A DNA stretch of 64,000 bases from Naegleria gruberi (taxonomy: Eukaryota). The notes under the pieces were generated by a model that saw only the letters and a program-made list of their open reading frames with translations, had not been told where the DNA came from and did no database searches. The translations under genes were made by a program, and so were the position numbers. Positions 1 to 61,700 of the stretch are shown here, in pieces. The DNA lies in NCBI GenBank assembly GCA_000004985.1, contig GG738875.1; one strand, 5' to 3'. How positions within the stretch are numbered: position 1 is the stretch's first letter; each line of letters opens with the position of its first letter.

Positions 1-3000
1 AAGTTGATAATATTTATCAAATTTTCAACAATGAAAAATCTAATCCACCAAGAACAAAGAATATGCCACCAGTATCTGGAGCTATTTATTGGTCTCATTC
101 ACTCTTTGAAAGAATTAGAAAACCAATGATTTTGTTCAAGGAGGCTCCAGATATGTTGGATACAGATGAAGGAAAGAAGATTCAAAATAAGAGTTTTACA
201 GTAGCTAAAGAAATTCTAGAATTTGAAGAAACTAAATTTAAGGAATGGAAATCAACAGTGACGGAAGATACTATTAAATACTTGAAAGGCAATATTTTAA
301 TGAAAGATGGTAATAAGATTGTTGTGAACTTCCATGCTAAACTTTTATTATTAATTCAAGAAACCAGATATCTTGATAAACTAGGTAAAAAAGTCCCAGA
401 AATTGCTTTGAATGTAACTTTGCAAGAAGAAAAGTACCACAAGTACATTGAAAATCTCAGAGGAATGATAGAAAATTTCACTCAATCAAAGGATTCATTA
501 GATAAGGCTGAAGAAAAGGTTCTTGCTCCTTTGATTAATAGATTGAAGAAAATATTAGAACCTGGATTTTCTGTTCTGAATTGGAACTCATTAGGTATTG
601 ATGAGTTTATCAAAAGATGTAACACGGAAATCTCAGATTTTCAATCAATTGTGCAGAAAATGCAAAGAAACGCATCTGTAATCCGATCCTTAATCCAACA
701 ACTCAAGAGTCCTTTTGCTACAAAACTGGACTTGAATGGAGAAATGATCACTTTACCAGAATTGGTTGAAACTATCGAAAGAAATGTTCAACAAAAAAGT
801 GTCAGTCTTGCCAAGAAATACAAAACTATTGGTCAAACTTTATTGAAGATGGAAGGAGACCTCATCAATAGTAATGTTATAGAGAGTGAAAGTAAATCAG
901 CAACAGGAAGAGAAAAGCTTTTACAGGGCTATTATGCCTATTGGGAAAAGAGAATTTTTAAAGCTCTTGTAAAGAATGTATCCTCAAGTATTGATGAATT
1001 GATGGATTTCCTGTACTTGAGTAAAAAGAAGAAGAATATCCCAATTAAGAAGAATCCTCTTCTCAAAGTTAACGTTTCATTGTATCACAAAGCTATTGCA
1101 ACATCACCAGATTTGGATGATATTTCAGATATGTTGGATAAGATTGTTAATAGCCCTATCAATGCTACTAAACATTTCGTGAGATGGTACAGTGGTACCT
1201 GCCATGAAATTACAAACATTGAAGTCAAAACAGAGAGGGATGACCAAATTGATATTCCTTCGATTATTGCTAATCACTTCTCTTTCTTCAATGAAATTCT
1301 TCAAATTCCTTTAATTACCAAGAAAGTTTTACTTTTAAATAATGGTATCCAGAAAACTTTAACTAATGTACAAAGATTTGTAAATACCTACACCAAATAC
1401 CAAGAGTATTGGAAGACACCAAAAGAAATGGCTATGGAAAAGTTTGGTAGTAAAGACCCTTCATGGGATGCCTATTACAGAAAATTGGAAGACTATCATA
1501 GATTGTTAGAAGATATTAATTCTCATACAAAACCAATCAAGGATTTAGAATTTATTAGAATAGATTCAACATCATTTATAAAATCCTTCACAGATGAATT
1601 GAGAAAATGGATTGAAGCAATGTCCAAATTATTAAATAGCAATATTGAACCTAAAGCCAAGGAATTAAATGCTAAAATTGATAGCTTCAAGGAGGGGTTA
1701 ACAATTGAAATCAAGGAACTTGATGATTTGAGAAAGGTACTTTCAGTAATTGATGAAGGTAGATCTAGCTCTGCTGATATAGAACGAGAATATAGAGAAG
1801 TTGAGGATGTTTACCATACTATGATTTCTTATGGTGTTAAAATTCCAACTGAAGAAATGGAACTTGTTAATGGACTGAGATCAAAATGGGAAAATTTAAT
1901 GGTAGCCTCAAAGGAAATGGAAATTGAATTGATTCCACAAAAAGAAAGATTCACTTCTGAGACACAAAAGAGAGTTTCTCAATTCCAAATTGAAGTTACT
2001 AAATTGAAGGACGAATTTGATAAAGGTCCAGGTAATCCATCAGTACAATTGGAAGAAGGTCTCGAACAAATGGAGTCACTTAAAGGTGCTATGGAAGAAA
2101 AGAAAAAGACCAGAGATTACCTTGTTCAATCAGAAAAATTATTCGACCTACCAATTACTCCTTATCCAGATTTTGTGCAACTCGAAAAGAAGATGGCCAA
2201 GTTTGGTAAGATTTTCGAAATATTTGGAGATTGGCAAAAGAAGCTTACCAAATGGTCTAGAACTCTTTGGGTTGAAGCTCCTATTGAAGAAATGACCAAA
2301 GAAACCTCACGATTCTCCCAAATGTTGATTAGTAAGAAGGAATTCCCTCAAGAGCTTCAAGAATTACCTGCTCACAAGACATTTAAGAGTAAGGTTAAAC
2401 ATTTCCAAAAGACCATTGAATTACTTTCATGTCTTAAGAGTGAAGCATTGAGAGAGAGACATTGGGAGCAATTGATGAAAGCTACAGGTAAAAACTTTGA
2501 TATCAATCCATCAACATTCACATTGAAAAATTTGATTGATATGAACTTGTATGAACACGAAAATAGTATTAATGAAATCACAGAATCTGCCAATAAGGAA
2601 CTTGATGTTGAAAATACAATTAAGAAGGTTGCTGAGGTTTGGAGAAATAGAAAATTCGATCTCAAGAAGCACATTAGAGATGGTGAAGATAGAGGTTTTG
2701 TTTTGACCGGTATTGATAGTGTAAAAGAACAATTGGAAGAAGATACTGCCAACTTGGCTGCCATTTCTGGTACTCAACATTCTGTACCTTTTGCTGCTGA
2801 ACTTAGCAAATGGGAAGGATATCTTTCTAAGATTGATGAAGTTACTACTCTTTGGGTAGATGTTCAAAGAACCTGGATGTACCTTGAAATCATTTTTATT
2901 GGTTCAGAAGATATTAAGGATCAATTACCAGAACAAGCAAAAGCCTTTAAGAAGATCGATACTGATTGGGCTAAAACTATGGCTGAAACAGCCAAGAATA

Positions 3001-6000
3001 GAAATGTGTTGGAGAATTGTTGCCAAGGAGGTGACAAACTTTCCCTCATGTCTAGTCTACAAATAAGACTCAACGAATGCCAAAAGGGTTTAAACAATTA
3101 TTTGCAATCAAAGAGAAACGCCTTCCCAAGATTCTTCTTCATTTCAGACAATGAGTTGCTAAGTATTCTTGGTTCTTCTGATTTGAATACTATCCAAAAG
3201 AGTATTGGTAACTTATTTGAAAACTGTGGTAGTCTTATTATCAAACCAAACACTAATTTAGTTTTAGGTATGGTTTCCAAAGAAGGAGAAGAATACACAT
3301 TCGATAAACCTGTAAGAGCTGAAGGATTTATTGAAAAATGGTTAACTGCTGTTCAAAGTGAAATGAGAAAGACACTCAAAATTATTATGAAAAAATCCGT
3401 CTACGCTTATCCATCTGTTCCTAGAATTGATTGGATCAAAGAGAATCTAGGAATGGTCACTTTGTGTGGCTCTCAAATTTGGTGGACTTGGGAAGTTGAG
3501 GATTCCTTTAGAAGAGTTAAAAATGGTGAAAAGATGGCTGTTAAAAATTTGGCTGTTTTACTCACTCAAAGATTGAACGCTTTGGTTGATGAAGTTAGAA
3601 CACCTCTTAATTCTCAAGTTAGAAAAAAGATTACCACCATGATTATTATCGATGTTCATGCCAGAGATATTGTAGACAGATTGGTAAGAGACAGTATTTT
3701 GGACGAAAGAGAATTCGATTGGGAAAGTCAATTGAGATTCTATTGGGACAAATCTGCTAACGATGTTAAAATTAGACAATGTACTGGTGAATTTGACTAT
3801 GGTTATGAATATATGGGTCTTAATGGTAGACTTGTTATTACTCCATTGACTGATAGATGTTTCATGACTTTAACTCAAGCTCTTACATTTAATTTGGGTG
3901 GTTCTCCATCTGGTCCTGCAGGTACAGGTAAAACAGAAAGTGTTAAAGATTTGGCCAAGAGTTTGGCTCTTATTTGTATTGTTTTTAACTGTGGTGAAGG
4001 TCTTGACTACAAGGCTATGTATATGAATTTTTCAGGTTTGTGTCAAACTGGTGCTTGGGGATGTTTTGATGAGTTCAACAGAATTGAATTACCTGTCCTT
4101 TCTGTCGTTTCTACTCAAATCAGAGAAATTCAAAGCGCTCTTAAGGCAGCAAAGGATGAATTTAGATTTGAAGAAGAAGATATCAAACTCGATAGAAAGC
4201 TTGGTATCTTTATTACTATGAATCCAGGTTATGCTGGAAGAGTAGAATTACCTGACAATCTCAAAGCATTGTTCAGACCATGTGTCATGGTAGTGCCTGA
4301 TTTGGAAATTATTTGTGAAATCATGTTGTTCTCTGAAGGTTTCAACTCTGCCAGAGTTTTGGCTAGAAAGATGACAAAACTTTATCACTTAGCCTCTGGA
4401 CAACTTTCAAAACAACACCACTACGATTGGGGTCTCAGACCACTCAAATCAGTCTTAGTTTTTGCCGGTAGATTAAAGAGAGAAAATCCAGAAAAGAGAG
4501 AGGATGAACTTTTAATGAGAGCTTTGCATGACATGAATGCTCCAAAGTTTGTTTATGAAGATACGCCACTCTTCCACGATTTATTGAATGATCTTTTCGT
4601 AAATATTTCATATGAAAGACTCACTTATCCAAAACTTTACAAGGCTGTAGAAGAATCATTACAAGAAAAAGAAATGAAGTTACTTGAAGATGGTAGTCAA
4701 GTCGATAAGGTTATTCAAGTTTATGAAACCCTTGAAACTCGTCACTCTGTCATGATTGTTGGTGAAACTCAAGGAGGAAAAACAGTTGTTTTCAATGCTC
4801 TATGCTCAGCATTGAAGAAGGCTTTCAACTTTAACGTTAAACAATTGGTAATGAATCCAAAAGCTCAAGGTTTGGCAGAATTGCATGGCGTGCTTAATAA
4901 GGATACCAGAGATTGGACTTATGGTTTACTTTCATACTACTTTAAGGAACTTAACCAACCTTGTGAAAAGGGTAATGAAAGAAGATATCTTGTTTTTGAT
5001 GGTGATGTAGATGCTGAATGGATAGAAAATATGAACTCTGTCATGGATGATAACAAGATTTTGACTTTACCAAATGGTGAAAGAATTACTCTTCTCAACC
5101 CTCTCTGTTCATTAATGTTTGAAGTTGGTAACTTGAAACAAGCTTCTCCTGCCACTGTCAGTAGATGTGGTATGGTCTATGTAGATCCTAAGAATCTTGG
5201 TTTTGAACCATTTATTTGGACTTGGTTAAATCACAAGCTCAAGAAGGATCACCCAGAGAAAGTTGAAGTAATGCAACGTTTATTCGAAAAATATGAAAAG
5301 TCTTGTGTTGACTATGTATTGAAAGGTATTGATCTTGATGGTTCATTTGTTGAGAGACTCAAATTGAACGTTGTTATGAATTCTGTCAGTTTGGTATCAC
5401 AACATTGTAATATGCTTGACGTAATATTTGCTGATCCAGAACAAAATACTGAAGATGAAAGAGAATTAGAGTGCCTCTTTGTTTTCTCTCTTATTTGGTC
5501 TGTTGGCGCTGTTGTTGTGGATAACGATAGAAAACGTTTTGATGACTTTATTAAGAAACTCACAAAGTGGAAATCTGTAGATAATGGTGAAAGCTTGACT
5601 GACCATTTTGTTGGTGTTGGTTGTTGTCCTTCAAGATTGACACTTTATGAATATTTCTTTGATATTAATAATCACCAATGGAAACCTTGGAAGGTTGCTG
5701 TCCCACTTTACACTCCTCCAGCTAATGGAAGATTCTCTAGTATTATTGTTCCAACTGTTGATACAGTTAGATATACTCATTTATTGAGTTCATTTGTATC
5801 ACTTGGTAAGCCAGTACTCTTTGTAGGCTCTTCAGGTACTGCCAAGTCAGTCATGATCAAGAACTTTGTTAAAGACTTGACAGACAAGAATGAGAAAATG
5901 ACTAATTTATCTATTAACTTTTCTAGTAGAACATCTAGTTTGGATTTGCAAAGAACCATCGAAGACAATATTGAAAAGAGAGTTGGTGATAACTACGGAC

Positions 6001-9000
6001 CTTTACAACAAAAGAAGATGATAGTCTTTATTGATGATATGAACATGCCAAACTTTGACAAATATGGTACCCAACAACCTATTGCTTTATTGAAATTGAT
6101 GTTAGAAAAGCAAGGTTTCTATGAACGTAAAACTACCAATCTGGCCTTTATGAGATTACTTGATATGCAATACGTTGCTGCCATGCAACCAACATTTGGC
6201 AGTAATGCTATGGATCCAAGAATTGTTTCTAAATTCAATGTGCTTAATATTTCTTTCCCATCTGATGATTCTATTGACCATATTTATAGTTCCATTTTAA
6301 GTCATCATCTTACAAACTTCTCTCAAGAAATTCAAGATGTTAGTTCAAAGATAACCAAGTCAACTATTAGATTGTACAAGTATCTTGTAAATTCACTTCC
6401 TCCAACTCCTTCCAAATTCCACTACCTCTTCAACTTGAGAGATTTGAGCAGAATTTATGAAGGTTTATGTTTATCTACTATTGATAAGCAAAACGAGGCT
6501 GCAAAGTTTATTAGATTGTGGAGAAATGAACTTTTGAGAGTTTTCCATGATAGACTTATCTCAGTAGCAGATAAAACTCTCACCATCAATGCTATTGAAG
6601 ATGAAATCAAGACTGTTTTCCATAGTCACTCAGAATATGTTCTCAGAAATCCAATTGTTTATGGCGATTTCCTTGACTTCCAAGATCCAAATAATCCAAG
6701 ATTATACGAAGATTTAACGGATTATGATAGAGTTAAGCCTGTTATTGAAGATGCCATCAATATTTACAATGAAAGACCAGGTATTAAGAAATTAGATCTT
6801 GTAATGTTCGAAGATGCATTGGAGCATTTAACTAGACTTTTGAGAATTGTTAGAATGGATAGAGGTAATGCTCTCCTTATTGGTGTTGGTGGTTCTGGTA
6901 AACAAAGTTTAACTAGACTAGCATCTTTTGTTGCTGGATATGAGTTATACGAAATCAAACTCTCAAGAGGTTATAATGAAAATCAATTCCGTGAAGATTT
7001 GAAGAATTTGTACAGAAAACTTGGTGTAGAAGATAAGAAAGTATTGTTCTTGTTTACTGATGCCCATGTTGTAGAAGAAGGATTTTTGGAATTCATCAAT
7101 AATATGCTTTCATCAGGTGTTGTTCCTGCATTATTCGAAGATAATGAAAAGGATGAACTCTACAACGCAGTATCTAAGGAAATTAAGACGACTAACATTG
7201 TTCCAAATAAGGAAAATATGTGGAACTTCTTTATTAACAAATGTAGAAATAATTTACACATTGTCCTTTCAATGACACCTACAGGTAGTACCCTCAGAGT
7301 TAGATGCAGAAACTTCCCAAGTTTAGTTAGTAGTACTACTATTGACTGGTTCACTTCTTGGCCTTCCCAAGCTCTCAAAGAAGTTGCTAACCAATTCTTG
7401 TCAGATGATTCAGTTCCGCAAGAATTGTTGCAATCTATCAATACTCATATGATTTTCGTACATCAAAGTGTTGAGAAATATAGTAATAGATTTGCTCTCG
7501 AATACAGACGTTATAACTATGTTACACCAAAGAATTATCTTGATTACATCAATACTTACAAGAGATTACTCAATGAAAATAGAAGTAAGATTGATGAAAT
7601 GATCAAGAGACTTGATGGTGGTTTGAAGAAACTAAGAGAAGGTAAAGATGAAGTTGAAGAAAGAAAGAAGGAATTATCTGAAGCCTCTGAAATTCTCCAA
7701 ACAAAGTCTGTTGAAAACCAACAGCTTCTTCAAGTTATTAGTGAAAGACTTACAGAAGCCTCAGAACAAAGTAAACTCCAACAAGAAAGAGAAGAAGAAA
7801 TTAAGAAGGAACTTGAAAACATTCAAAAGCAAAAGATTGAAGAAGAAGAGAAGTTAGCTGTAGCTGAACCCGCTGTTAGAGCTGCAGAAGAATCTTTGAA
7901 GAAACTTGACAGAAATGCTATTACAGAAATGAAGTCATTTGCCAGTCCTTCCCAAGTCATTCAAGATGTTGGTGCTTGTATTTATATCCTCTTAGAAGAT
8001 GATTCTCCATCACAAATTACTTGGTCTAATGTTAAGTCTATCATGACTGAAGCCTTCTTTAACAGATTGGTTACCTATGAAAAGTCAAGACTTACATCTA
8101 ATAAGATTAACAAAATTGAAACTATTTACAGAAAGAACGGTGATGCCATGAAACCTGAAGAAATTGCTAAAGTTTCAAGTACATTGGCTGAAATTATTAA
8201 GTGGGTTAACTCAATGAGAGAATACTTTAATGCTATGAGGGTCGTCAAACCAATCAGAAAGAAGAAGGAAGAAGCCGAAAGAAAGCTTGCCTCATTCACA
8301 GAACAATTAGCAACCATCAAATCAAAGCTCATTAAGTTAAAAGAGGATATTGCTGAATACAAGGTAAAATATCAAAGAGGTCAAGAAGAAGAAAAGAGTT
8401 TGATTGAAAAGAAATTAAGTATGGAAGCTAAACTTACAGCTGCCAACAAACTTATTGAAGGTTTAGGCTCGGAAAGAGAAAGATGGGCTCAACAAATTCA
8501 AGAACTTGCAGAAAAGAAGAATAGATTAATTGGTGATTGTTTAATTTGTTCAGCATTTTTGAGTTACACTGGTGCCTTCACTGTTGACTTTAGAAAGGAA
8601 ATGATTCAAGAATGGATCAATGAAATGAAGGAAACAGAAATTCCACTTACATTCCCATTCGATATTGAAGATATTCTTACTGACGATGTTCAAAAGAGTC
8701 AATGGGCATATGAAGGATTACCTTCTGATAAGATTTCTACTCAAAATGGTGTTCTCACAACCCACGCTTCAAGATTCCCTCTTTGTATTGACCCTCAACT
8801 TCAAGCTGTTAAATGGATCAAGAACAAGGAAAAGAACATTAGAGTTTGCTCTTTTAGTGATTCTGACTTTATGAGAAAGATTGAAAATGCTATGAAATAT
8901 GGAGAAACTGTACTTTTTGAAAATGTTGATGAAGTTATTGATCCAATGATAGATCCTGTTTTGGATATGGAAATTAAGGGAAAGAAGAGAATTGTTAGAA

Positions 9001-11921
9001 TGGGTGGTGATGAAATTGATGTTGATCCGAAATTCAAACTCTACATGTGTACCAGAATTTCCAATCCTCATTACACTCCTGAAATTGCCAGTAAGACAAT
9101 TATTATCAACTACAGTGTTACTGAAGAAGGTTTAGAAGAACAATTATTGAATATTGTAGTCAATCATGAAAGACCAGAACTTGAAGAAGCAAGAAGAGAA
9201 TTGGTTCAAACAATGTCTGAAAGCAAGACTTTACTTCAACAATTGGAAGCAAAAATTTTGAAGGAATTGAACTCTACAGGAGGTGGTTCCCTTATTGATA
9301 ATGTTGAATTGATTCATACTTTAGAAGAAACTAGAAACAAAGTACGTGAAATCAACACAAAGATCATTCAGACAAAGCAAAACGAGAAAGAAAACTTTAA
9401 GGCTAGACAAGGCTATAGACCTGCTGCAAAGAGAGGTACTATTCTCTACTTTGTCATGTCCAGTTTATCAAATATTAACTCTATGTATGAATATTCATTA
9501 TCTTCATTCTCACAAGACGTCTTTGAAACTTCATTGTCAAGAAGTCAACCTTCAAGAATGTTAGAAGGTAGATTGGATAATATTGTTGACTACTTGACCA
9601 AGTCAGCATATAGTTATACATGTGCTGGTTTGTTTGGTGTGCACAAACTTTCATTCTCTCTCCAAATTGTTCTCAAGATTATGGATAGTGAAACTAGACT
9701 TAATCAAGCTGAACTTGATTTCTTCCTCAAGGGTGATCTAACAATTGGTCTTGAAACTCCAAATCCATGTGAATGGTTATCTGAAAGCAGTTGGAAAGAT
9801 TTGTTAGCCCTTTCAAAGATTTGCGAAAACTTAAAGGGATTATCTGAAGACGTTACCAATAATTCTTTATGGAAAGAATGGTATGACCATGCTGAGCCAG
9901 AAGCTTTACCTCTTCCAAACGAAAAATATCAAAGTGTTGTTACTCCATTCCAACAAATGTGTATTCTTCGTTGTTTGAGACCTGACAGAATTGTAGTTTC
10001 TGCAACCAAGTTTATTGCAGATGAGATGAAGAATGAATATTTTGTCAAACCACCTGTTCTCACTTTTGAAAATATCTTTAGTCAAAGTTCCAAGCTTTCA
10101 CCAATTGTTTGCATGATCAGTCCTGGTTATGACCCAGCAAATGACATTATCAAACTTTCAAATGAACTTGATAAGAGAGTCAAGTATATTTCTCTTGGTG
10201 AAGGTCAAGGTGAAAAAGCCCTTGCTTTGCTTGAAAAAGGTATTTCTAAAGGCATGTGGGTTCTTCTTCAAAATTGTCATTTGTTGGTTGATTGGATGAA
10301 GAATGTTGAACACATTTTAGAAAAACTTGAAAAGGATAAGGTTCATGATGAATTTAGACTCTGGTTAACAACTGAAGTTACTCCAAAATTCCCTATTGGT
10401 ATTCTTCAACGTTCTCTTAAGGTTGTCACAGAGCCTCCAAACTCTTTGCAACTTAACATGAAATCAACATTTTCTAATATTTCTGATCCAGAGTTAGATG
10501 AATGTCACCACAAATCTTTCAGACCATTAGTTTATGTTCTGTCTTATTTCCATGCTGTTATCCAAGAAAGAAGAAAGTATGGTAAAATTGGTTGGAATAT
10601 TCCATATGATTTCAACAAGTCTGATTTTGATGTCAGCTTCAGTCTTATTAGAACATATTTGAATAAGGCATCAATGTATAATGATCCAATTCCATGGGAC
10701 AGTCTCAAGTACCTTGTTGGTGAAGCTATGTATGGTGGTAGAGTTACAGACAAGTTTGACAGAAGAGTTCTTACTACATATCTCAATGAATTTATGGGTG
10801 ACTTCTTGTTTGATACCTTCCAACCTTTCCGTTTCTACGAAGATGAAAGTGTTTGTTATGAGTTACCACCAATGGAAAGAGAAAAGCTTATCGGAAAACA
10901 AAATATGATTGTTCCACTTGCTGTAGAAGATTTCTCTGAATTTATTGAGAGGAACGTTAAGCTTACAAACTCTCCAAGCGTTTTTGGTTTGCATCCTAAT
11001 GCAGAAATTGGTTACTTGACCAATTCTACATCTAATTTGTGGAGTGATCTCATATCTTTACAAATTGGTGTATCTTCTCATGGTGGTAAAGGAACTGGTG
11101 ATGAATATATCAAATCAGCCCTCAGCATTATCCCAGAACCATTTGATAAGGAAGAAATTCAATCAAAGATTCTTCAAAAGTCAAGCAAGCTCACTCCAAT
11201 TAATGTAGTCTTACTTCAAGAAATTGATAGATGGAATGCTCTAGTAGCAGTTATGAAGAGATCATTAATTGATTTGCAAAAGGCTTTGGCTGGTGAAATT
11301 GGTATGAGTGAAGAACTTGAAAATTTGAGTAATTCCATTAATATTGGTATAGTTCCTCAACTCTGGAAGCAAATGGCACCACCAACAAGATTGAATTTAT
11401 CTTCATGGTTAGAACATTTCAAGGAAAGATATAGTCAATATGTTGATTGGATTAAGTATGGTGAAGATCCTGTTGTTATTTGGTTGAGTGGTTTGCATGA
11501 ACCAGTTTCCTACATCACTGCTCTTATTCAAATGACATGTAAGAAATACAAATGGCCTCTCGATCGTACAACTATTACAACTAGAGTTACAGAGTACAGA
11601 GCCTCACATCAAGTCAAAGAAAAGCCTCAAGATGGTTGTTATGTGCGAGGTTTATTCTTGGAAGGAGCTGCTTGGGACTTGAAGAATAGATGTCTTAAAA
11701 CACAAAATCCAAAACAATTGAGAGAAGAACTTCCTATTCTTGAAATTATTCCAACAGAAAACTCCAAAGTCAAATTACAAAATACTTTCAATGCACCTGT
11801 TTATTATACTCCAGATAGAAATGATGGTGGTAATAAGGGATTGGTATTTGAAGCTAATCTCCAAACTGATGAACACGAAAGTATTTGGACCTTACAAGGT
11901 GTTGCAGTAACAATGACTTAA
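1..11921 (+). CDS. Dynein heavy chain, probably an axonemal inner-arm type. The gene is truncated at its 5' end: the frame is already open at nt 3, and the first in-window Met is at 63.
   Basis: A single uninterrupted exon of more than 3,950 codons. The AAA1 P-loop reads GPAGTGKTE. It also has [40 protein letters not shown], further P-loops ([24 protein letters not shown]) and a coiled-coil stalk. The [10 protein letters not shown] motif and the length of about 2,660 aa after P-loop 1 favour an axonemal single-headed dynein over a cytoplasmic one. The stop is TAA at 11919-11921. Confidence 0.9.
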   Translation, partial: [3972 protein letters not shown]

Positions 11922-11969: not shown

Positions 11970-12149
11970 TTACACTCTATACCAATAGTTTTCACAAAAT
12001 TGTTTCGAATAGTGTAGATATATCCTGTGGGCAACAATCTTTTCGGCAAGTGCTGATTTCTTTCCTTTAGACTTGATTCTCAAACTTTTGCAAATTTCGA
12101 CCAATTCCTCTTTCCTCTTCTTGATCAATTCTACTGTTTCTTCTGACAT
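11970..12149 (-). CDS. Small ORF of 59 aa with a SAP-like motif (ELVEICKSLRIKSKGKKSALAEKI).
   Basis: The ATG at 12149-12147 is preceded by an A-run. The ORF matches the SAP helix-G-x-K-helix spacing (G15/K17/L20). It converges on the dynein stop 49 nt away. It is short, so it could be chance. Confidence 0.3.
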   Translation of the reverse strand: MSEETVELIKKRKEELVEICKSLRIKSKGKKSALAEKIVAHRIYLHYSKQFCENYWYRV

Positions 12150-12265: not shown

Positions 12266-14437
12266 ATGTGGAAGGCCCCGACGCAAACGTTTGTTAAATC
12301 AAACTCTTACGGCCTTTTCTTTTTGCCAACAAAAGTCAGATTTAACCAAGTTAATCTTAGGGTTGTTAAACAAACAAATAACGTTAACTATCCCCAACCT
12401 CTAAGCTTTACGAACAATATGACATTTCCCAACAAACAATATTTTGAAGGCGAGGATTTGATGAATATGATGGATCAGGTTGCAAGGAAGATGAAGGATG
12501 TTACTGAAAAGCCTAAATGTAAACAAGTGTTGAATACCTATCGCACAGAGAGCCACGTACAAATATACAGATTTCTAGCCTCTGTTATGAATCAACTCCA
12601 ACACAATGAGTACAAAGATTGTAGAGGTCTAAATTCCCACACACTCATTGGACGAAGAGGAATTGGAAAAACAGCAACTCTCACCAATATATCTTTAGCC
12701 GGTCAATTATTGTTTCCAAAAATTATTCCTATTTACATTTCGTATTTGGGTATTCAGAATGATCCGTTCCTTCAACAACACACAGTCATGGAAGTTGTGG
12801 AAATGGTTCTAAATGAGCAGGGTATTCCAGTAGACACACTTGGAGGAAGATTTGTGAACATTATGGAAGCACTTTTTGAAGTAGATAAGCACGTTTTACT
12901 TATTGTGGATGAAATTGATCAATTGTATCAAGTTTGCCCAAATGGCTGGAGTGACACTTTGATTAAATCTTTGGGAGAACTTGCATCTATTGGTGATAAT
13001 GATAGTGGAAGGTTTTCAGCAATTCTTTGTGGCTCCTCTTCAAGAATTTCTTTACTTGTCAATGCCAATGGTAAGAAGGATGAAGTTACAGTGAAAGAGT
13101 TTCCTCTTGTTGCCAGCTCACCAAATTTGAATGGAAACAAGTTTAGAATAAGACGAATCCTTACGAATCCCCCAACTGACATTACAGTTGCTGCTCATAT
13201 CTTAGAATCTGGACTGGTCAATACAAAAAACAAGGCTATGTGTAAAGCTGTTACCTTTATTACTGGAGGTGTTACAAGAGAAATTCAGAGATTACAGTTT
13301 GAAAGAAGAGATGAGACATTCTTCACCTCTCTCCATGTAGAATCTAATCCTAAAGCTTTGGCTACATTATCCTCACCTGCAGGAGAAATTTGGAACAACA
13401 TTTTAGCTTTGCTATTCGAAAAAAACAAAGAATTACTTGAACAATTAGTAGATAAGGATGGGCTTACTGATATGGAAAAAGTAAAGAGTGTAAATTGGGA
13501 ATACCTGTTCAAGCCTTTAAGTTATACTGAACTCAAAGAAAAGATGGGTTCTGTAACCAATTTAGACCATTGGATTTTCCATTTGTTTGACAGAGATTAT
13601 ATTACTGTTTGTGAGATCAATAATGGAAGACCAGATGAAATTTACCCATACTCACTATATATGCTTTTGAGAAGTGGAATGACAGCAAGTACCAAAAGAG
13701 ATGATGCTAAACAAATATCTGCTTTTTTTAGAGGCATTATTTGTGAAATTTCTTCAAGCATCAAGGATCCTAAAAAGATGGGGGGTGTTGTTTTTAATTG
13801 GAGCTTTCGTGGGATAATTGGTTCGGCAGTAAATTCGTTATGAGCATTCTATTTCCAAATATTTTTAATCACCAACCCTAAAGAGAGATTCTAATTCCAA
13901 TAAGAAATCTAGCTCACAAGTTGATGAAATTTCTGCAAGACCTCCAATTAGAAGATCTAAAGTACCAATTCATTACAGTAATAAGGAAAGAACAACAAAA
14001 CATCCATCTTCACATACCTTGAAAAAGATTGAGATTGAAGATCATTGTAAGTTTTACAACATATATCGAATTTGTTGTGAACTTTATTGAAAGGTCCAAA
14101 ATGTGAAAAGAAGATTGAAAAATCTGCATTTGAGTATCATGTAAGAAGATGTAATTCCTCTAAAAATCAACCTAGAAAGTCATCTCTTGATTCAAACTGG
14201 AAATCTAAACATGGATTTTGTTTATCAAGAATAAGAAACAAAAGATTTCTAGTAAAGATAGTGAAATTCCAAAAGATGAATCCATTTAATAAACTCAAAC
14301 CTTGTTCTTATAAAGTACCTAAAATTATTAGAATAAACATGTTGGATCCACTCATCACTCATCTATTCAGCTCATTACTAAATGTATGTTGTTGGAATAA
14401 TGAAAAGGGTTCAAGAACTGTATCCTCCAACACTTAA
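12266..14437 (+). CDS. P-loop NTPase (AAA+-like) with a predicted C-terminal C2HC zinc finger. Proposed model: join(12266..13828, 13884..14046, 14094..14437).
   Basis: Walker A is HTLIGRRGIGKTATL and Walker B is HVLLIVDEIDQLYQ in the 525-aa ORF. A GTAAAT donor at 13829 pairs with an AG acceptor at 13882-13883 (55-nt intron). A GTAAGT donor at 14047 pairs with an AG acceptor at 14092-14093 (47-nt intron). The spliced junction builds the motif C-P-K-C-x3-I-x5-F-E-Y-H-x3-C. The middle exon has no in-frame ATG. Exon 1 coding is secure. The splice model is an inference. Confidence 0.5.
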
Positions 14438-19016: not shown

Positions 19017-21033
19017 TTAAACACTTTTAGTTTCTTCCTCTTCTGTTTCATATCTTCTCTTCAAAATTGATTTAGGTACAGTTAGGGAAAGAATAAAGGT
19101 GAATATACACACTCCAGCACACACCCAAAAACTAATCTTGTCGACGAGTGGAACTTTTCCAATCCAAGAGTTTGGATTTGATTCAGTGATACTTTCAGCC
19201 CAATTCAATCCAACACTAAGCAATACTCCTCCAATGAATGGACCTGAAGCCCAACCTATTGAAGCAGTAATATGTGCTAATCCAGTTGTGCTTCCAATGT
19301 GTTCCGAAGATGGGGCTGAATTGTTGACAAGTAAGAATTGAGAGGTATAGGCCATTTCTTGTGCGCATGATTTGATAAAGATACAAAAAGTGGCAAAAAT
19401 AAAAACAACCCAAGGATTCCACTCATATTGGACTAGTTCAGTACTGAATGGAAAAACTATTACGTCAATGATGTAAACTATCAAGCCAATTCTGAAGAGC
19501 CATAAGAATCCAAGCTTATCAGATAATTTTGGATAAATAATTAACATTATTAGTGAAGTAACGCCACCAATAGAAAGCATTAATCCAATTTGTGACGAAT
19601 CCAAAGCTAGACCTCTCTTTTGAATTGAATTACTGGCAAAAACTAACAAATATTAATATCATTATAACAAAAAACTTACTTGGAACCATTTCGTCCATAA
19701 TATTAGTAGCAAGACCAAGGAAGAGATACAACAAAGCAACCTTAACAACTATAGAATCTTTCAACAGATAAAAAAGACTCAAGTTTGGTTTTTCCTTATT
19801 AGCAGCTACCTTTGTCTCAATTGAAGATGTTTCCTCGACAGAATTTGAGTCCTCTTCCAATAAATTATCCTTAGTACTGTAGGCGTCTAAGTTTGTCGTG
19901 GAAGCACTTATCATTTCAATAGATGCTTCTTTTTCCTCTTCCACAATTTTCTTTTTTCTTATTCCAACCTTTACAAGAAACCAATTTACAATATCAAATC
20001 TATTCTTTAAAGATTCTTTCATGAAAAATATTGTGCAAATAATTGAAATAATATTCATAATGACTGGAATGGAGAGCGGTAGCACGTACGGATTAGTGTT
20101 AAAGAAATTATAGAGCCATGTTTCTTTACCTCCAAAAAGGAAAGGCCATTTTTCGGCAGGTTTAGACAACCAACCTCCCATTCCAGGAGAAACGATGTTA
20201 CTCACAGCCCAAATACAACTAATAAGCACAAAGGCTTTTTCCTGATTGCTCGAATTGGTAATATCAATAGTGAATGACTTGTAAATTGGAACGTTAGCAT
20301 TCAAAGCTCCGTGAATTGTTCTAACAACTAGGGCAAACCAAAAATTCTTTGAAAATGCAAATAATGACAAAAAGATTACATTCACAACTAAGCCCGATAA
20401 CAATAAGGGTTTTCTTCCTAAATGATCACTCGATCTTGAAATGAACCAATTGGAAATTAATTGAGCAACTGAATAGGCAGATGCCAAAATACCAACCAGT
20501 AATCCAACTCTTTCCTCTGGTATTTCCAATTCATCATGATTGATAATTGTACCATTTCCAATCAATGAACTATTTACACTAAATAATTTCGAATCAAATT
20601 GTTTCGAATATAAATAACTTTTTGGCAAAATTGCAAAACTATTAAATCCCAAGTTGTAACTTGTTGTAGTAGTATTATAACTCAGTGTTCCATTATTTAG
20701 ACGTGCTTCTTGTTGTTCAAACAACAGAAAATCTCTCACCATAAATGGCACAACAGGATAGAGAATTGAATAACCAACAGCCTCAGCAATGATAATTATC
20801 GATATCATTATCATGGCCATTTTAGGCAATGGTGTCACTTCTGGTTTCACTTCCTCTTGATTACTTTCCAAATTTTGTTCCTGTTGCTCTTCTACTTGTT
20901 GATTGTTATCATCAATAATTCCTTCATTATCATCATCATCTGCCAATCGGATGATATTCACCGAAGAAGATAACGAGTGAGTATTGTCATCATCCATTTC
21001 TGGTGGTGAGTCTTGTTGTGGGTGATGACTCAT
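19017..21033 (-). CDS. Major facilitator superfamily transporter: join(complement(19017..19642, 19680..21033)).
   Basis: The N-terminal region is acidic and Q-rich. The protein has 12 hydrophobic spans and an MFS loop GRKPLLLSGLVVNVIF. A 37-nt intron (GTAAGT...TGTTAG) joins ...IMDEMVP to IFASNSIQKRGL... in frame. Confidence 0.8.
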
Positions 21034-43289: not shown

Positions 43290-44597
43290 ATGTCTTCAAC
43301 TCAAAACACTAAAATTCCAACCTATCGTTTGCTTGGTAACTCTGGTCTCAGAGTATTCCCACTCTGTTTAGGAGCCATGCACTTTGGCTATAATGAAACA
43401 TTCTCCAATGCATTTGTAAGTTTCAAAACTTTCATTTATATTGGGTTGATCACCATATATTATTAGGGTATTGGCAGTTCCGATGAAGAAAGTGAGAAGA
43501 TTTTCTTAAAGTACATTCAATTGGGAGGTAATTTCATTGATACGTAAGTAGTAGTTGACCAAAACTATATCTCTAAATGAATTTCAAAGTGCCAATATTT
43601 ACTCATTAGGTAGCAGTGAAATCTTGATCGGTGAATTGATCAAGAAGCACAACATTGATCGTGATACCTTGGTAATTGCTACAAAATACTCTGGACCAAC
43701 TCCAGGTGTTACTGGTCCAAATGCTGCAGGAAATAATAAGAAAAATCTGTTCAAAGCTGTTGATGATTCATTGAAGAGATTGCAAACTCATTATATTGAT
43801 TTATTATATGTCCACTTTTGGGATTTCACTCTTGATGTTACTCAATTGGTTCGTTGGTAAGTAATTTGAGTTTATTCCAATTTCGAATACAATTTCATTA
43901 AGGTTGGACGAATTGGTTAAGAGTGGTAAAGTTCTTCATGTTGCCATCAGTGACACCCCAGCATGGATTGTCTCTAGAGCCAATACCTATGCTGAACAAA
44001 ACGCCCTCACTCCATTCACAGCCTATCAAGGAAGATATTCACTCGTTGATCGTGGCCAAGATCAAGATGTAATTCCAATGAGCAAGGCATTGAATATTGC
44101 AACTGTGCCATGGTAAGTGTGTGTGCATTTTCTATATATATATATATATATGGAAATTAATATGTTAATATCATGATGAATATTATGATGAATATAGGGG
44201 AATTGTTGGACAAGGTAAATTGACTGGTGTTAGAACTCGTGAATCAGATCAAGATGCCAAGAGAAAATTTGTGGAAATTAGTGAACAAGACGCCAAAGTT
44301 CAACAAGTTGTATTTGATATTGCTAAAGAAATTGGTCGTTCTCCAACTCAAGTAGCTATTAATTGGGTTTTGGGAAGAACCACTAGTCCAATTCTTGGTA
44401 CTAGAACTTTGGAACAATTTGAAGATGCTGTCAAAAGTCTTGAATTTGAATTGAGTCAAGAACAACTTGAAAGATTGAACAAGGCAAGTGAAAATTCACC
44501 AGCTGTCATTTTCCCTCACAGTTTTATTGGAAATAGTTTTGATACTAATCGGTGGTTGTTCCTTGGAGGTGATAAGACTTACAATATTACAAATTAA
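43290..44597 (+). CDS. Aldo-keto reductase (Kv-beta / aryl-alcohol dehydrogenase-like): join(43290..43415, 43467..43543, 43590..43856, 43903..44112, 44198..44597).
   Basis: Four introns of 51, 46, 46 and 85 nt, all GTAAGT...AG. Spliced, the product reads ...LGNSGLRVFPLCLGAMHFG...GGNFIDTANIYSLGSSEILIGELIKKHNIDRDTLVIATKY...HYIDLLYVHFWD...LVKSGKVLHVAISDTPAWIV...VPWGIVGQGKLTG...VAINWVLGRTTSPILGTRTLEQFEDAV. Confidence 0.85.
44133..44151. repeat. (TA)9 microsatellite, preceded by a (GT)4-5 run, inside AKR intron 4.
   Basis: Direct reading of ctatatatatatatatatatatg. Confidence 0.8.
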
Positions 44598-55717: not shown

Positions 55718-58700
55718 TTAAGCATTAATCTTGAGTCTTCTACCGGCTTGGGCTGGTTTTTTCTTCTTGTCTTCTACCTTTTTGAAACTTAGGGTTGGTT
55801 GTGCTGAATATTCTTCTAGCTTTACAAAACTCTCTGCTTCTCTAACCTTACGATCTTGTTCTGCTAAATGTTTGATGAGTGATATACATAGACTTTTGGT
55901 ATGACATAAACAAACAGAATCAGGGATAATATCTCCATCTTCTATGGCAACAATTTCATTTTGAGAAGTAATAGGCCACAGACTATCCATAATAATATAG
56001 AAATTCAACCCAATATTTGTTTGTTGGTAGAAAGCAGGAATCAAGAACCTTATAATAAATCTTTTGAGAACTGTTGTAAGGTTATTGATATTGACATTGT
56101 TTTCTTGGCATGATCTAATAATTCTTTGCACAATATTTTCTTCCAACTCTATAGTATACAAGTCACTGAGATAATTAACTTCAAAATCAAAGATAACTTC
56201 TTCTACATATTCAAACAAGTTGACAATCTTGTTGAGAGTAAAATTAGCGAAAAACTGTTCCTTGTCATTCAAGTTGATTTTCCAATCATAGCAAAATGTA
56301 GAGACTGTAACATCAGGATTAAAGTTCACCAAATTCATGACTTCCAATAGTTTTTGTAAGGAACCTTGGATTTTTTTCAATCTTGGCAAGTCGTTGATTA
56401 GTATATTCACTTTGGTTCTTTCAGAGTCGTCCAGAGGTATTGGATTTGGAATTTTCTTTCTGGCGGCCATATCTGCATTGCTACCAAAAGATTCACCAAT
56501 GTACTTGATTTTTCTCAAGTTTTCAAAATCCAATCGCTTTTTTCCTAATAAATACTTTGAGGCCAAAGCAAATTCAATCTTATCAAAAAGGTATCCAACT
56601 GTTGTACCTTTTCCATATTCATAATTTTTGTATGAAAAAGTAATGGTTAAATCTTCCAAGTATTCTGGGTTAATAATTACCAGATCTTTCTTTTGAGCTT
56701 TTTGTACTGGAATAGTAGGTAACCCTATGATACCATTAATAGATTTCAAAAAGGCAAGATTTGCTGATTTCTCAGCATTTTGTTCTGCAATATCTATAAA
56801 ATTATTTTGTACTTCAGCATAGCCTTGCAAGGCAGCACAAATATACAACCCAAATGGCTCTTGCTGATCTTCTATCAAGAAGAATGATAGCATTTCTGTG
56901 TCAATCTTTTTCTTTGATTTAGGTTGTTTACATCCATAATTTACAGCTTTTTCTGCTTTCCATTCTGTAACTACCTTTCCATAGAGTTCTTTCAAGCCAT
57001 TAGTTTCTGCATAATACTTCATTTCTGTTTTTTCAGCAGTTGCTCGTTCAATAGTGTTATCACATTTATCCATCAATAAATTGGAAAAAGTGATAAGGTC
57101 GAAAAGGCTTTCGATGTGATGTAGCTCTTTTTCATTAGTCAAGTAGGCTTTCAGGAAAGGATACAATTGTGCATTCTCTGGATTAGACATGAATAATGCC
57201 TTCATGCCTTGGACAGAAGGAGATGATGTAATTCTAAATTCTGTAAATTTGTTAATTTGGGAATTATTTGGCGTACATGTTTCTTCAATGATTGCTTGGA
57301 GACTACTGTTTTCTTCGGACCTGGTAGAATTCATTTTTATATCTCTGATTGAGAGGTTAATGTCTCCCAGAACTCTGGAGGTATATTCTATCAATCCATT
57401 TTCGAAAATGGCTCTCTTGTCCTCTGTATCTAACCTTTCATTATTTCCAAATAAATAATCCAAATTTGAAATAATACATTGCTGCAATAGGAAGCACAAA
57501 TTTTCACCTTGTTGATCTAAAATTTGGGCCAATATATTCCAATCCTTAGCAGCTTTTTCATTAAAGTAATCAATAGGGTTATTAAGTTGATTCTGGATGA
57601 AGAAACCTCTAATTTCATCTATGCTAACTAAATTGATATCTAAGCCATTGAGGATAATTGAATTAATAAAGAATTGCCAAACTCTGAACATTGCTGGAGG
57701 GAATTGTCTTACGGTATGATAATCATCATTAATTGCAGACATTGTACATCCTTTTTCGTTGGATGAATCGGTTCCGTCTCTTTTAGCTTCATCAATTCTA
57801 CTTCCTTGAATAAGTTTGTGACCTTCTCCTCCAAGTGTTGCTCCACATGTTGGGCATCTAGCAGTACCATTAGGTTGTCCACAATTTCCAATCAAATATA
57901 CATAACCACAATTACATCTGTATCTACTGTGACCTCCATCTTTGGTGTTGATAGCCTTCAAAATACCACCTAAAATATCGTGTTCTGCTGTAACTACGTA
58001 TGTGGAACGGACTGTATTTGGATTTTTGATGAAGATGGAAATAGGGTTTTCTGGTATGCATACAGCAAGACACATAACACTAATTCTAATAACATAACTG
58101 CAATCCCTTACAGTTGCTGATCTAAGTAAGCGTGTCACAAGGTTTTTTACAGATTTTGAAAAGCTTTGGAAGCTGCTTGCAAAGAATTCCACACAGAGAC
58201 GTAATGTTGAATCGGTAATTTGTGAAAAGTGAATATTGTTAGTAATCAATCCCATCAATGTGTACAACAACTTTGGATTGGACTTTGCCTCTTGAATAAG
58301 TTCCAACATATCTCTTGTATTATTCAAGTAGTACATTTCATCAAAAGCTTTTTCTGCTTCTTTGTATCTAGGTAGTGACCTAAATATGTTATAACCAAGT
58401 GTGTCGAACGATTTGTTTGTTAAATCAACATCTAATGATCCAGAGATATCAGACTCCACAAATTCTTTAAAATCTAACCAATTATCGAAAGATTGTTTCA
58501 CACATTTGAGAAGATAATTTTTTGCGTCTTCGTCTTGAGATAAATAATTGGAAATTATTGATCCAGAAATAGTGGTTTGAAGGTCTTCTTGACTTGAAAT
58601 ATTTTTCAAATGGTGTCTAATTGATGCAACGTAGTAGGCTCTTTCAATATCTGGAACTGACTCACTATTAGGAGAATTGATTTTGTTACCTAATATTCTT

Positions 58701-61700
58701 AATTCTTCTTCATTGGTCAATTCTTGGTCTGAAACCAGTTCTTCAAGTACATCTATAAACACATAGTAAAGAGGGCAATATGGGTTATTCACAAGAAGAT
58801 TGTTTAGAACCCTCAGGTTCTCAAAATTTCCCTCCTCTAACTCTTCTATATGATCAACACAAATCTTATAGACAATTTGCGTCAAATATTTAACATCTTG
58901 GATTTCAACAAGTTCTCTACATACTACCTCCAATAACTCTTCTGTAAGCTCTAGTCTTGAAATAAATACCATCTTGGATTGGAATAGGTTTTGGGACTTT
59001 GATAAAATTTGCAATATGTTTTCTATTAATTTTGGATCTTCAAGATTGCAATCATAGCAGAGAATCTCTGTACATATTTGTTGGATTTCATATGGGTATT
59101 CCAGTAAATAGTGAGAGAAATCTTTCAAAATTTTTAACAAAGTAGCTGAAACATTCTCTTCCAACAATATTGGCAAAACTGTTGCTATTTTGTCTTTCCA
59201 TTCATTGTTAGGGGTTCTAGTTCCGTCTTGAAGCAGAGATAAGGTGATTATATCAAGTAAATCATCCAAGCATTCAATATCCTCAGGTATCTCAATAGAA
59301 TTTCCACAACAATACTTGATTAATTCTACAACAGCAAGTAATGTTTTTTGGTTATTCCAAACCATTAGTATTAATCTTTCTTTTGGAGAGAGTACTAAGT
59401 TGATCTCGAATAAACCAAGTATGATATTTTCGAATATTTGAGCGAATTCTGAGTTCAGCCCCAGTTCTTGAGCAGTGATTGTCAAAAAATCTCTTTTAAG
59501 AAGTTCTTCTGAGTAATCTTGCAGGCCAAAAACGCATTCAGATGACTCTATCAAAGAAAGAAGTAGAGGCTCTAACTGTTGTTCTTGATTATCACCTTTT
59601 TCAATACTGGAATTTTGTTTTAACATTTCCAACTTGTCTTTGAGTTCCTTATAGATTTCACATTGCCACTTACTATATGGAAGTCTCAAGCCCTTTATCA
59701 ACATAATTTTAGAATTATTAGCTCCATTATTGTGGTATTTAGCAGTGATATTCTTCCATAAAGCTCTCAACTTCGGATCTGCAATGAAAAAGGTCTCAAG
59801 AGCTGAATGTTGTTCAATGAATTTCAAAATATTGAGCAATTTTCGTTGAACAAGGTCTTGCATTTCGTTTTTGATAGCATCTATCAGACAACCAGATTCT
59901 GCAAGCTTTTTCTTGTCAAGGGCAACATGTTTCCTCCAATCAAACTGAACCTTTTGCAATTCTTCATTAAGAATTTCTCCAATAAATTGTAAAAATTCGG
60001 CATCTTCAATTATCTTGGAAGATAATGTACTTATGTATTCAATATTTACGGCAAAGTAGTCTATCTTCATTAATGTTGCCTGAATGATATCTTTCAAGAT
60101 ACTTTCAACATTGTAAAATTCACTCGAGAACATATCATGGATATCTAATAAGTTGGTCTGGTCAAAATTAGGGGACAACTCGTCAATAGTCACTTGTTTC
60201 CACCCATTCATGAAATTTAATTTCCAATCTTCATTTGCATTCTCATAAATATCTCTGGAGATGTGTAAAATGAGGAATACCTTCTTGTCAGTCCTGTCAG
60301 AGTTTTGAATATGATGATCTACAATAAATTTTACCATCGGTACAAATTTACCATCCAAATGAGATTCAAAGTGTATGGTCAACAGCCCATTTTCTTCATC
60401 ATTAAAGAAATCTTCGACTTTTTTAGCAAATTCCCTCTCTGTATTAAACTCTCTTACCCTAATGGAGGATAACCAGGTAAAGTTTAATTCTGTCAAAATA
60501 TGTGAAAAGGTCATAATCATGTGAGCAAAACCATCACAATTGTTGTAGTAGTCTAATAGATTATTATGTTTGTCTAATTGGTATCTATTCAACCAGTTGT
60601 CACATTCTTCCTTAGATACGCTGGAATATGCCAATCTGACTATACCATCAAAGGTTGAAGTTGCGATCAGTGCTTCTTTGCAAATTTCTACACAGTGTTC
60701 TACTGAGGTAGTTGAATTAGTATTTGCAAGAACCAGTGATGATAGTGTATCTGAAGAATAGGATGGAAACATGTCGTTAACAGTAAAAACGTTACTATCT
60801 AAATTAGTAATATTTTCTACCCATTCATTTAAACGCATCACACATTCATTCACTTTAGATTCACTAATATTCTCAAAGTTAAGAATTTGTTTTTCGAATC
60901 GGTTCAAAAAAGGAGGATCACAGGTTGCCAGACGCTTTTGGTCAACTAAAACTATGCATCTAAAATTCTCGTTAACGTGGCACATAGGGTTACTATGTGG
61001 GCCAATAGCAATTCTACAATTTCTTCTTTTAGCGACATAAGTATAGTTTTGATTCAGCATATCGTATAAGCTGCCATAGACACTATCTAAATCTTTCAAA
61101 ATCAATGTGTACCCTTCTTCCATACAATAAATAATCTTATTCAAAACCACATAGCTGTATTCTTCTGTCTTGTCCAAATTGAACTGACTTCCATAAATAA
61201 TTTCAGGACTTCTATTAAGGAACTCTTTGTAATAGTACGTAATGATATCTAATGCAGAATCACTATTAGTAATTAACATTAGATGTCTGGCATTCTTATC
61301 TTCAATATTTTCTTTGATTAGTTCCAATATTGGCAAGTCTGATGGTACAGATTCAGTAATTGATGCTTTTTCAAATAATATTTTCTTGAAATTCATAGCC
61401 GAAGCTGAAAGACCTCCAAAATTTCTATCTATAGCTCTACAAAGACTAACAGCAAAATTTTCTTCTTCTTCAATGATAACACTTTTGACAAGTGAGTAGT
61501 AATCTCTCAAACCATGGAAATTGTTATATTTTTTGTTTGAAATAAATTCGTAGTAGGACTTAGAAAGATAATCTAATAGAAGTTCTATTGTATCTGTCTT
61601 TTCAATATGATTATTTTCAAATAAAATTGTTTTTGCAATTTCCTTTAGCTCATTTTCATCAGCTTCAGGTCTAGAAACATGGACTGCTCTGTTCATTTTT

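Follow-up and report, generated by a model that had tools for sequence, protein, structure and literature searches.

The 64,000-nucleotide window of Naegleria gruberi nuclear DNA analysed here (contig GG738875.1 of assembly GCA_000004985.1) contains an open reading frame (ORF) of 525 codons that runs on the plus strand from an ATG at 12266 to a TGA ending at 13843. We find that this ORF alone is a complete AAA+ and winged-helix protein of the kind typical for its family, a large and unnamed group of AAA+ ATPases of about 500 aa that takes a position between Orc/Cdc6, the ATPase_2 proteins (PAB2304, SSO1545) and the STAND NTPases. The locus corresponds to the public gene NAEGRDRAFT_68862 (XP_002675861.1), which is annotated as a "predicted protein" of 597 aa. 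Literature searches with the accessions NAEGRDRAFT_68862, XP_002675861, EFC43117 and D2VJ05 returned no papers. A preliminary description of the locus, made from the nucleotide letters, had proposed that the NTPase is fused through two mini-introns to a C-terminal C2HC zinc finger. This fusion is plausible and unproven, specific to the lineage and already part of the public gene model; on the balance of the evidence laid out below we lean towards accepting it. An ATPase of the unnamed family that carries a lineage-specific finger tail is our best explanation of the locus as a whole, and we hold it by a small step beyond even chances. Unless stated otherwise, all features lie on the plus strand.

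The 525-codon ORF, the Walker A motif GRRGIGKT (12650–12673, residues 129–136) and the Walker B motif LLIVDEID (12896–12919, residues 211–218) can be read directly from the sequence as previously described. The two motifs follow the patterns GxxxxGK[ST] and hhhhDE on a P-loop alpha/beta core, which identifies the protein as an AAA+ ATPase. In an alignment of 109 family sequences, residues G129, G132, G134, K135 and N387 are invariant, and D215, E216, C255-G256-S257-S258, N289, K292, G334, R338, W411, D442 and P461 are nearly so. An AlphaFold model computed with this alignment (predicted local distance difference test, pLDDT, 85.3; predicted template-modelling score, pTM, 0.85) arranges the chain as a P-loop core (residues ~95–300), a helical lid (about 306–368) that carries G334 and R338, a winged-helix module (about 371–470; 13376–13675), a long helix (474–499) and a tail of low confidence. 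Strand 4 ends in the CGSS motif (255–258), and near strand 5 lies the basic segment N289/K292, joined in closer relatives by R294 and R297; a basic segment NLNGxKFRxRR is conserved in the family. From its position in the lid, R338 may be a sensor-2-type arginine, and the other sensor and finger roles would likewise be assigned by position. Because both Walker motifs, CGSS, the NLNGxKFRxRR segment and the lid arginine R338 are conserved, the protein would be expected to hydrolyze ATP.

The preliminary description called the NTPase ORC-Cdc6-style, and this call was right. A profile of the family matches Drosophila Cdc6 (E 3e-7) and TnsC (E 1.7e-3), and the structures nearest to the ORF model are archaeal PAB2304 and Orc/Cdc6. 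A C-terminal winged helix, supported by winged-helix matches, follows the lid, as it does in the Orc1/Cdc6 clade. Three helices (167–171, 174–184 and 195–205) between strands 2 and 3 would be compatible with an initiator-specific insertion, as judged from the order of helices in the model. With the window protein, TIGR02928 reaches 13.1 bits (E 0.032) where its cut-off is 181, PRK00411 reaches E 0.071, and the matches of relatives to the Pfam model ORC-CDC6-like are confined to the P-loop. With archaeal Orc1/Cdc6 and eukaryotic Cdc6/ORC the window protein shares only 12–16% identity; unlike these proteins, members of the family often start with a presequence-like N-terminus, and no link to replication origins is known. 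The ATPase_2 model (PF01637) of PAB2304 and SSO1545 scores at most 23 bits in the family, with a cut-off of 33.2. These two proteins, themselves of unknown function, are archaeal, whereas the family occurs in eukaryotes and probably in giant viruses, not in archaea. None of the curated models accounts for the window protein: with AAA_22 (PF13401) it scores 22.2 bits (E 1.8e-4) against a gathering threshold of 27, a threshold that several relatives pass with 32–45 bits. The resemblance to AAA_22/TniB-like proteins such as TnsC and MuB also has its limits, in that the N. gruberi locus has no transposon context and the family possesses an extra winged-helix domain.

With the ORF as query, a word-indexed homology search yielded just 6 clusters, and the 109-sequence alignment gave the same 6. 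Only when 1.84 billion representatives were searched exhaustively with an HMMER profile did the true size of the family become apparent: 761 proteins match at E ≤ 1e-3, of which 242 reach E ≤ 1e-30, and most are 450–550 aa long. Among the Pfam and NCBIfam matches the family has no model of its own. Among the members are complete MMETSP transcripts, several of them paralogs from a single transcriptome, and one EukProt protein. Some member contigs carry eukaryotic neighbours, such as genes for a mitochondrial carrier, an adaptin and a peptidase M1, or, on another contig, ribosomal S5 and a WD40 protein. The family occurs in diverse protists. Two further members, P0021 on an ENA contig (scaffold_25512_c1; L007) and P0065 on a Logan contig of SRR26937427 (L015), are surrounded by densely packed, mostly unknown ORFs, to which the former contig adds a thymidylate kinase and an RNase III. 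Both contigs look like giant-virus DNA, consistent with a full-length structural match of the ORF model to the Sylvanvirus protein A0A3G5AH84 (509 aa; E 1.2e-32, TM-scores 0.76/0.78, 25% identity). To go by the structural models, this viral protein probably belongs to the same family. It has no described function, and its length is that of an unextended family member, so that a finger extension is unlikely, judged by length. No relatives came to light when viral contigs were scanned with the family alignments and with P0021, and PHROGs gave no match.

The patchy distribution among protists also raised the idea of a Gcp protein associated with the miT2SS system. We rejected this idea: Horvathova et al. 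(2021) list 23 co-occurring families and describe no P-loop family among them, and the accession is likewise absent from the main text and the examined supplements of that paper. Two homologous loci deserve a separate remark. A 55%-identical homolog (L002, ~1300–1460) has lost the segment equivalent to residues ~446–480 (CEINNGRPDEIYPYSLYML...) and shifts frame ahead of the conserved C-terminal tail; this copy may be damaged or misassembled. Assembly GCA_016850925.1 contains two copies of a homolog with 41–44% identity, one on JAESGV010000926.1 (L010) and one on JAESGV010002651.1 (L003/L009). One of the two is called at only 267–279 aa, which suggests a truncated paralog.

In the domain order of the family, a low-complexity N-terminus precedes the P-loop core. 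The N-terminus of the N. gruberi protein is free of acidic residues over 60 positions (12266–12445): the first Asp or Glu is residue 61, and six Lys or Arg fall within the first 40 residues. In the AlphaFold model residues 1–29 have pLDDT values below 50, and 10-residue blocks between 30 and 60 average 64–70. Presequence-like N-termini were scored as the absence of Asp and Glu together with at least three Lys or Arg in residues 2–26, and windows internal to the proteins served as the control. By this crude measure 28 of the 109 family members qualify, compared with 5.3 in the control. The N-terminus of the N. gruberi protein may therefore be an organelle-targeting presequence.

We now turn to the C-terminal extension. 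The two mini-introns would divide the gene into exon 1 (12266–13828), which comprises 521 codons of NAEGRDRAFT_68862, a 55-nt intron 1 (13829–13883, GTAAAT...AAAG, phase 0) that contains the stop codon of the ORF, exon 2 (13884–14046; 54 codons and 1 nt), a 47-nt intron 2 (14047–14093, GTAAGT...AAAG, phase 1) and a third exon that begins at 14094. If intron 1 were retained, translation would end at the TGA at 13841–13843. The four splice motifs (13829, 13882–13883, 14047 and 14092–14093) are where the preliminary description placed them. Its GTAAAT donor lies 12 nt, that is 4 codons, ahead of the stop codon and not eleven codons as had been said. Exon 2 encodes a basic, Ser/Lys-rich linker without an in-frame ATG, as reported, and is present in the public model. 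Intron 2 splits the codon for the first cysteine of the finger, which is assembled from T14046, G14094 and T14095. From this T|GT codon onward, translation reads ...EDH-CPKCEKKIEKSAFEYHVRRC, and the split finger C-P-K-C-x11-H-V-R-R-C (14094–14153), with the spacing C-x2-C-x11-H-x3-C, indeed forms across the exon junction. Translation with these boundaries gives a product of 689 aa, against the approximately 630 aa suggested before. Peptides predicted for the spliced product span the junctions ...GIIGSARDSNSNK and IEIEDHCPK or derive from the tail (ISSKDSEIPK).

Comparison with other genes of the window supports intron 2 more than intron 1. A gene for an MFS-transporter-like protein of 659 aa on the minus strand contains a 37-nt intron (19643–19679, GTAAGT...TTAG, GC content 0.16), the shortest seen in the window. 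A plus-strand gene identified from its translation as aldo-keto-reductase-like contains introns of 46 nt (43857–43902) and 85 nt (44113–44197), the second of which holds a (TA)n microsatellite. Removal of these three introns, all with GTAAGT donors, restores continuous proteins, so the lengths of 55 and 47 nt fit the local size class as had been claimed. Two further likely introns of 41 and 52 nt are found at ~39.8–40.2 kb. All five have GTAAGT or GTATGT donors and GC contents of 0.16–0.27. Intron 2 resembles the verified introns in donor hexamer, size and GC content, has every sequence feature used to recognize the mini-introns, and has identical boundaries in the public model. Intron 1 differs from the local introns by one mismatch in its donor and by a GC content of 0.29. 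The public model uses another donor, GTTTTT at 13790, and thereby drops 13 codons; the window ORF and XP_002675861.1 are identical through residue 508 (...KKMGGV), where the first splice site of the public model falls. As a donor, GTAAAT is preferable to GTTTTT, and the public donor is probably wrong. GTAAAT also keeps ...VVFNWSFRGIIGSA, a stretch that, when compared by eye, lines up with the ends of related proteins (L002, ...KFGSTFLEMIKSFFK*; P0006, ...SVKQMIEFVMSSLGYGKK*).

A sister strain represented in metagenome run ERR1078381 (L001 and L004, two independent assemblies of the same run) is 97.8% identical to the reference over an aligned 1.2 kb and allows an assessment of constraint. Codons 1–521 differ by 5 synonymous and 18 non-synonymous substitutions. 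The resulting ratio of non-synonymous to synonymous changes per site (pN/pS) is 0.96, and omega ≤ 0.2 is rejected (P = 6e-4). Both assemblies agree on a GAA to TAA change at 13430 (codon 389), which truncates the protein ahead of most of the winged-helix domain. By contrast, the ORF contains no indel between the strains, compared with 13.3 expected from the rate in flanking non-coding DNA (P about 2e-6). The gene is thus under little constraint at the amino-acid level, where changes look neutral, but its reading frame has been kept intact. The pattern fits recent relaxation, with a pseudogene in the sister strain, or diversifying selection. Within intron 1, the TGA is lost in the sister strain through a 1-nt deletion, and a net insertion of 5 nt at the acceptor creates a new AG (CTAG|AATTCT) and keeps exon 2 in frame. 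The 5' edge of exon 2 differs through this rearrangement of the acceptor; its interior contains one synonymous substitution and no indel.

Is the finger then fused to the ATPase? Codon usage argues that it is. Exon 2 scores 0.27 per codon, which equals the mean of true coding sequence and exceeds all 153 controls (wrong-frame, stop-free stretches of real genes, each 50 codons or longer). For the terminal 19 codons, which the public model has as its last exon, the score is 0.498 and exceeds all 530 stop-free wrong-frame controls. The window holds no contiguous C2HC pattern in any of its six frames, and random sequence of the same composition yields 0.275 complete patterns per window of this size. 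The finger exons could hardly belong to a gene of their own. Exon 2 has no in-frame ATG, and the 44 nt between the last codon of the ORF and exon 2 (13840–13883) contain no GT, so that a separate first exon starting from the ATG at 13840 cannot feed exon 2. On the minus strand this region offers only an ORF of 43 aa. The alternative to a fusion is that the product is the 525-aa protein ending at the TGA at 13841–13843, and that the downstream exons are 3' untranslated region or a decaying remnant that both the preliminary description and an ab initio gene predictor have stitched on. We regard this as the less likely outcome, though one to be taken seriously. Family proteins end about 60 aa past the winged helix, and beyond the last conserved motif they continue for a median of 57 aa (interquartile range 50–60), to which the 63 aa of the unspliced ORF come close. 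Neither 156 family proteins nor the regions downstream of four homologous loci contain the finger, the latter scan being based on a contiguous-frame pattern that would miss a finger split by an intron. The preliminary description had called for orthologs with the same fusion, and these were not found. The extension peptide has no match at E ≤ 10 among 5.8 billion proteins. When metagenome contigs were scanned for exact matches to the finger exon, none turned up, and a protein-pattern scan of such contigs returned 5 loci, none of them informative on the finger. The window contains no second copy of either the extension or the NTPase.

Several further observations also weigh against the fusion. 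No transcript or peptide evidence was found for either splice, and the donor of intron 1 is weak in both versions, since GTAAAT departs from the GTAAGT/GTATGT of the local introns and GTTTTT does so as well. Codon usage in the segment needed to complete the finger resembles that of non-coding DNA. All five inter-strain indels 3' of the ORF lie outside the exons of the public model, which speaks for coding exons, but only weakly (P = 0.10 that the exons contain no indel), and the indels in the tail shift the frame. With a pN/pS of about 1 and a premature stop in the sister strain, decay may be under way in the gene, or in its tail at least. Against an ORF that simply ends at its own TGA stand the codon scores, the rarity of a complete C-x2-C-x11-H-x3-C pattern, the preservation of frame by the acceptor indel of the sister strain and the likeness of intron 2 to genuine local introns. 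Because no relative has the finger and the family normally ends at the position of the ORF stop, the extension would be a lineage-specific add-on.

If the fusion is real, splicing near its 3' end decides whether the finger is complete. The preliminary description let the third exon run to 14437. Against this end speak the non-coding-like codon usage over 14228–14434 (score −0.005, matched or exceeded by 27% of controls), a 7-nt insertion (ATCTCTT) after 14214 in the sister strain, and a 5-nt deletion at 14420–14424 in a frame already shifted out by that insertion. The extended coding sequence most likely ends instead at the TAA at 14287–14289, which closes the terminal coding segment NKKQKISSKDSEIPKDESI (14230–14289); the remainder of the proposed exon (14290–14437) is probably non-coding, either 3' untranslated region or intergenic. 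The 89 nt ahead of this terminal segment (14141–14229, GTAAGA...CAAG) are in dispute. They are either a third intron, as in the public model, or coding read-through. If the public 3' end is right, the protein ends ...SAFEYH-NKKQKISSKDSEIPKDESI; removal of the segment deletes VRRC and with it the fourth zinc ligand, and the remaining C-x2-C-x11-H would not be a functional C2HC finger. In addition to the public model itself (P0007), the codon score of the segment (−0.015, matched or exceeded by 31% of controls) and the 7-nt indel between strains fit an intron, and in the reference strain a third intron is the sole route to the strongly coding-like terminal frame. Read-through in this strain keeps the finger and ends in a frameshifted tail of 73 aa. 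We looked for another intron that would retain both VRRC and the terminal frame in the reference; on inspection, the only GT dinucleotides after 14153 give introns of 51 nt, in the wrong phase, or of 10 nt.

Nevertheless, we consider a genuine third intron improbable. Read-through places a cysteine codon exactly four positions after the histidine, a coincidence with an estimated chance of about 3%, and the GTAAGA donor is weaker than the verified donors. The insertion of the sister strain lengthens the segment to 96 nt, in frame and free of stops, and its read-through product ...EYHVRRCNSSKNQPRKSSLDSNWKSKHGSLILFIKNKKQKISSKDREIPKDESI* contains the finger with VRRC intact and ends at the same stop as the public model. 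The implausible GTTTTT donor used by the same model suggests that it is an ab initio prediction, and ab initio gene predictors often splice around frameshifts. We therefore consider it fairly probable, with some room for the opposite, that the arrangement of the sister strain is the functional or ancestral one, and that the reference carries a 7-nt deletion which the gene predictor has bridged with a spurious intron. It is also possible that 14141–14229 is an intron retained or removed in frame.

The finger itself could not be assigned to a known type. It had been described as a ZC2HC1A-type finger. The order of ligands (C-C-H-C) and the C-P-x-C start are indeed shared with this type, but zf-C2HC_2 (PF13913) was not reported at E ≤ 10, so that only the ligand spacing matches. 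The best finger match in Pfam was Sgf11 at E 0.08–0.45, below the cut-off, in searches whose HMMER filters let few matches pass beyond about E 0.1. PDB sequences and NCBIfam contained no significant match either. UBZ4 fingers have the ligand spacing C-x2-C-x11-H-x3-C and an acidic residue in H-x-D-x-C. The N. gruberi finger has exactly this spacing; in contrast to UBZ4, its HVRRC lacks the acidic residue, and homology between the fingers was not detected. The preliminary description had also presented an NTPase with a C2HC finger as an architecture not described before. The public model already joins these exons, and WRNIP1/Mgs1 is an AAA+ ATPase with one CCHC-type finger, an N-terminal UBZ ahead of the AAA+ domain (PMC13558859). 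A second report likewise describes WRNIP1/Mgs1 as an AAA+ protein with a CCHC-type UBZ (PMC5384577). The combination is thus analogous to WRNIP1/Mgs1 and not new. The two differ in the position of the finger, which is N-terminal in WRNIP1/Mgs1 and C-terminal in the N. gruberi gene, and in the ATPase, since WRNIP1/Mgs1 belongs to another AAA+ family that is absent from the sequence and structure matches of the family studied here.

How might these proteins work? By analogy with Orc/Cdc6, PAB2304 and TnsC, the NTPase most likely acts as an ATP-controlled switch that would oligomerize on nucleic acid, probably DNA, by way of the winged helix. Because about a quarter of the members have presequence-like N-termini, this action might take place inside an organelle in many lineages. 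Only in the lineage of N. gruberi would a basic tail of ~120 residues with a single C-x2-C-x11-H-x3-C finger probably have been added, through removal of the 55-nt intron that holds the ORF stop (13829–13883) and of the 47-nt intron (14047–14093). Such a tail, if made, might serve as a second handle for nucleic acid or for ubiquitin, as in UBZ-type fingers. Two points count against this scheme: DNA binding and oligomerization are suggested by analogy only, and targeting to an organelle by nothing beyond the composition of the N-termini. In its most specific form, the scheme would make the widespread family an ATP-dependent DNA loader or initiator of protists, imported into mitochondria or another organelle, to which the N. 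gruberi lineage has added a UBZ-like finger by moving the stop codon into an intron; we regard this version as a long shot.

The same core could instead belong to a STAND-like switch in conflict or immunity, one that senses a trigger, oligomerizes, signals and evolves fast in an arms race. This would agree with the pN/pS of about 1 in a reading frame free of indels, with the paralogs in one MMETSP transcriptome, with the giant-virus match over the full length and with the fact that no named N. fowleri or N. lovaniensis protein is among the six matched clusters. There are also matches to Avs3 and NLRs; one relative (P0115) passes the nSTAND1 cut-off (30.7 against 27.1 bits), and several others match NACHT weakly. 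The window protein does not behave as a STAND NTPase, however. Its NACHT match (E 0.06) stays below the cut-off, and it has no repeat or sensor domain; nor do proteins of only about 450–550 aa carry a C-terminal sensor repeat domain. In sequence and structure, the protein is matched best by Cdc6/Orc and PAB2304, the putative sensor-2 arginine R338 of the lid is nearly invariant, and many members start with presequence-like N-termini. We therefore consider an immune switch doubtful and prefer a nucleic-acid-directed, initiator-like ATPase.

From these considerations it follows which part of the locus matters. The fusion as originally put forward matters little, being lineage-specific, predicted and essentially contained in the public model. 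For XP_002675861.1 itself the analysis suggests corrections: the donor of its first intron is probably wrong, and its third intron, which destroys the finger, is possibly spurious. The more interesting object is the unnamed family of 761 representatives with its confidently modelled Orc/Cdc6-like AAA+ and winged-helix fold. If its members act on organelle DNA or in virus–host conflict, the family is worth naming and studying, and should the organelle DNA loader prove true, the novelty would lie in the family and not in the finger.

The neighbours of the gene, as identified from sequence, are ordinary cellular genes that encode a dynein heavy chain, a proteasome beta subunit and a deoxyhypusine synthase, and the GC content of the window is uniform at about 0.31–0.36. 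The dynein heavy chain ORF (63–11921, 3,952 codons, identified from its translation only) is intronless, though the adjoining genes contain mini-introns, and its N-terminus probably lies upstream of the window. Between this gene and the NTPase gene, a 59-aa ORF on the minus strand (11970–12149) encodes a SAP-domain mini-protein (Pfam SAP_new25, E 2.3e-7, over its cut-off; SAP, E 5.6e-4). This ORF and the NTPase gene point away from each other, their start codons only 116 nt apart, and in the sister strain the mini-protein ORF has an in-frame insertion of 3 nt. Close to the right end of the window, the minus strand contains an uninterrupted ORF of 2,741 codons (55718–63943).

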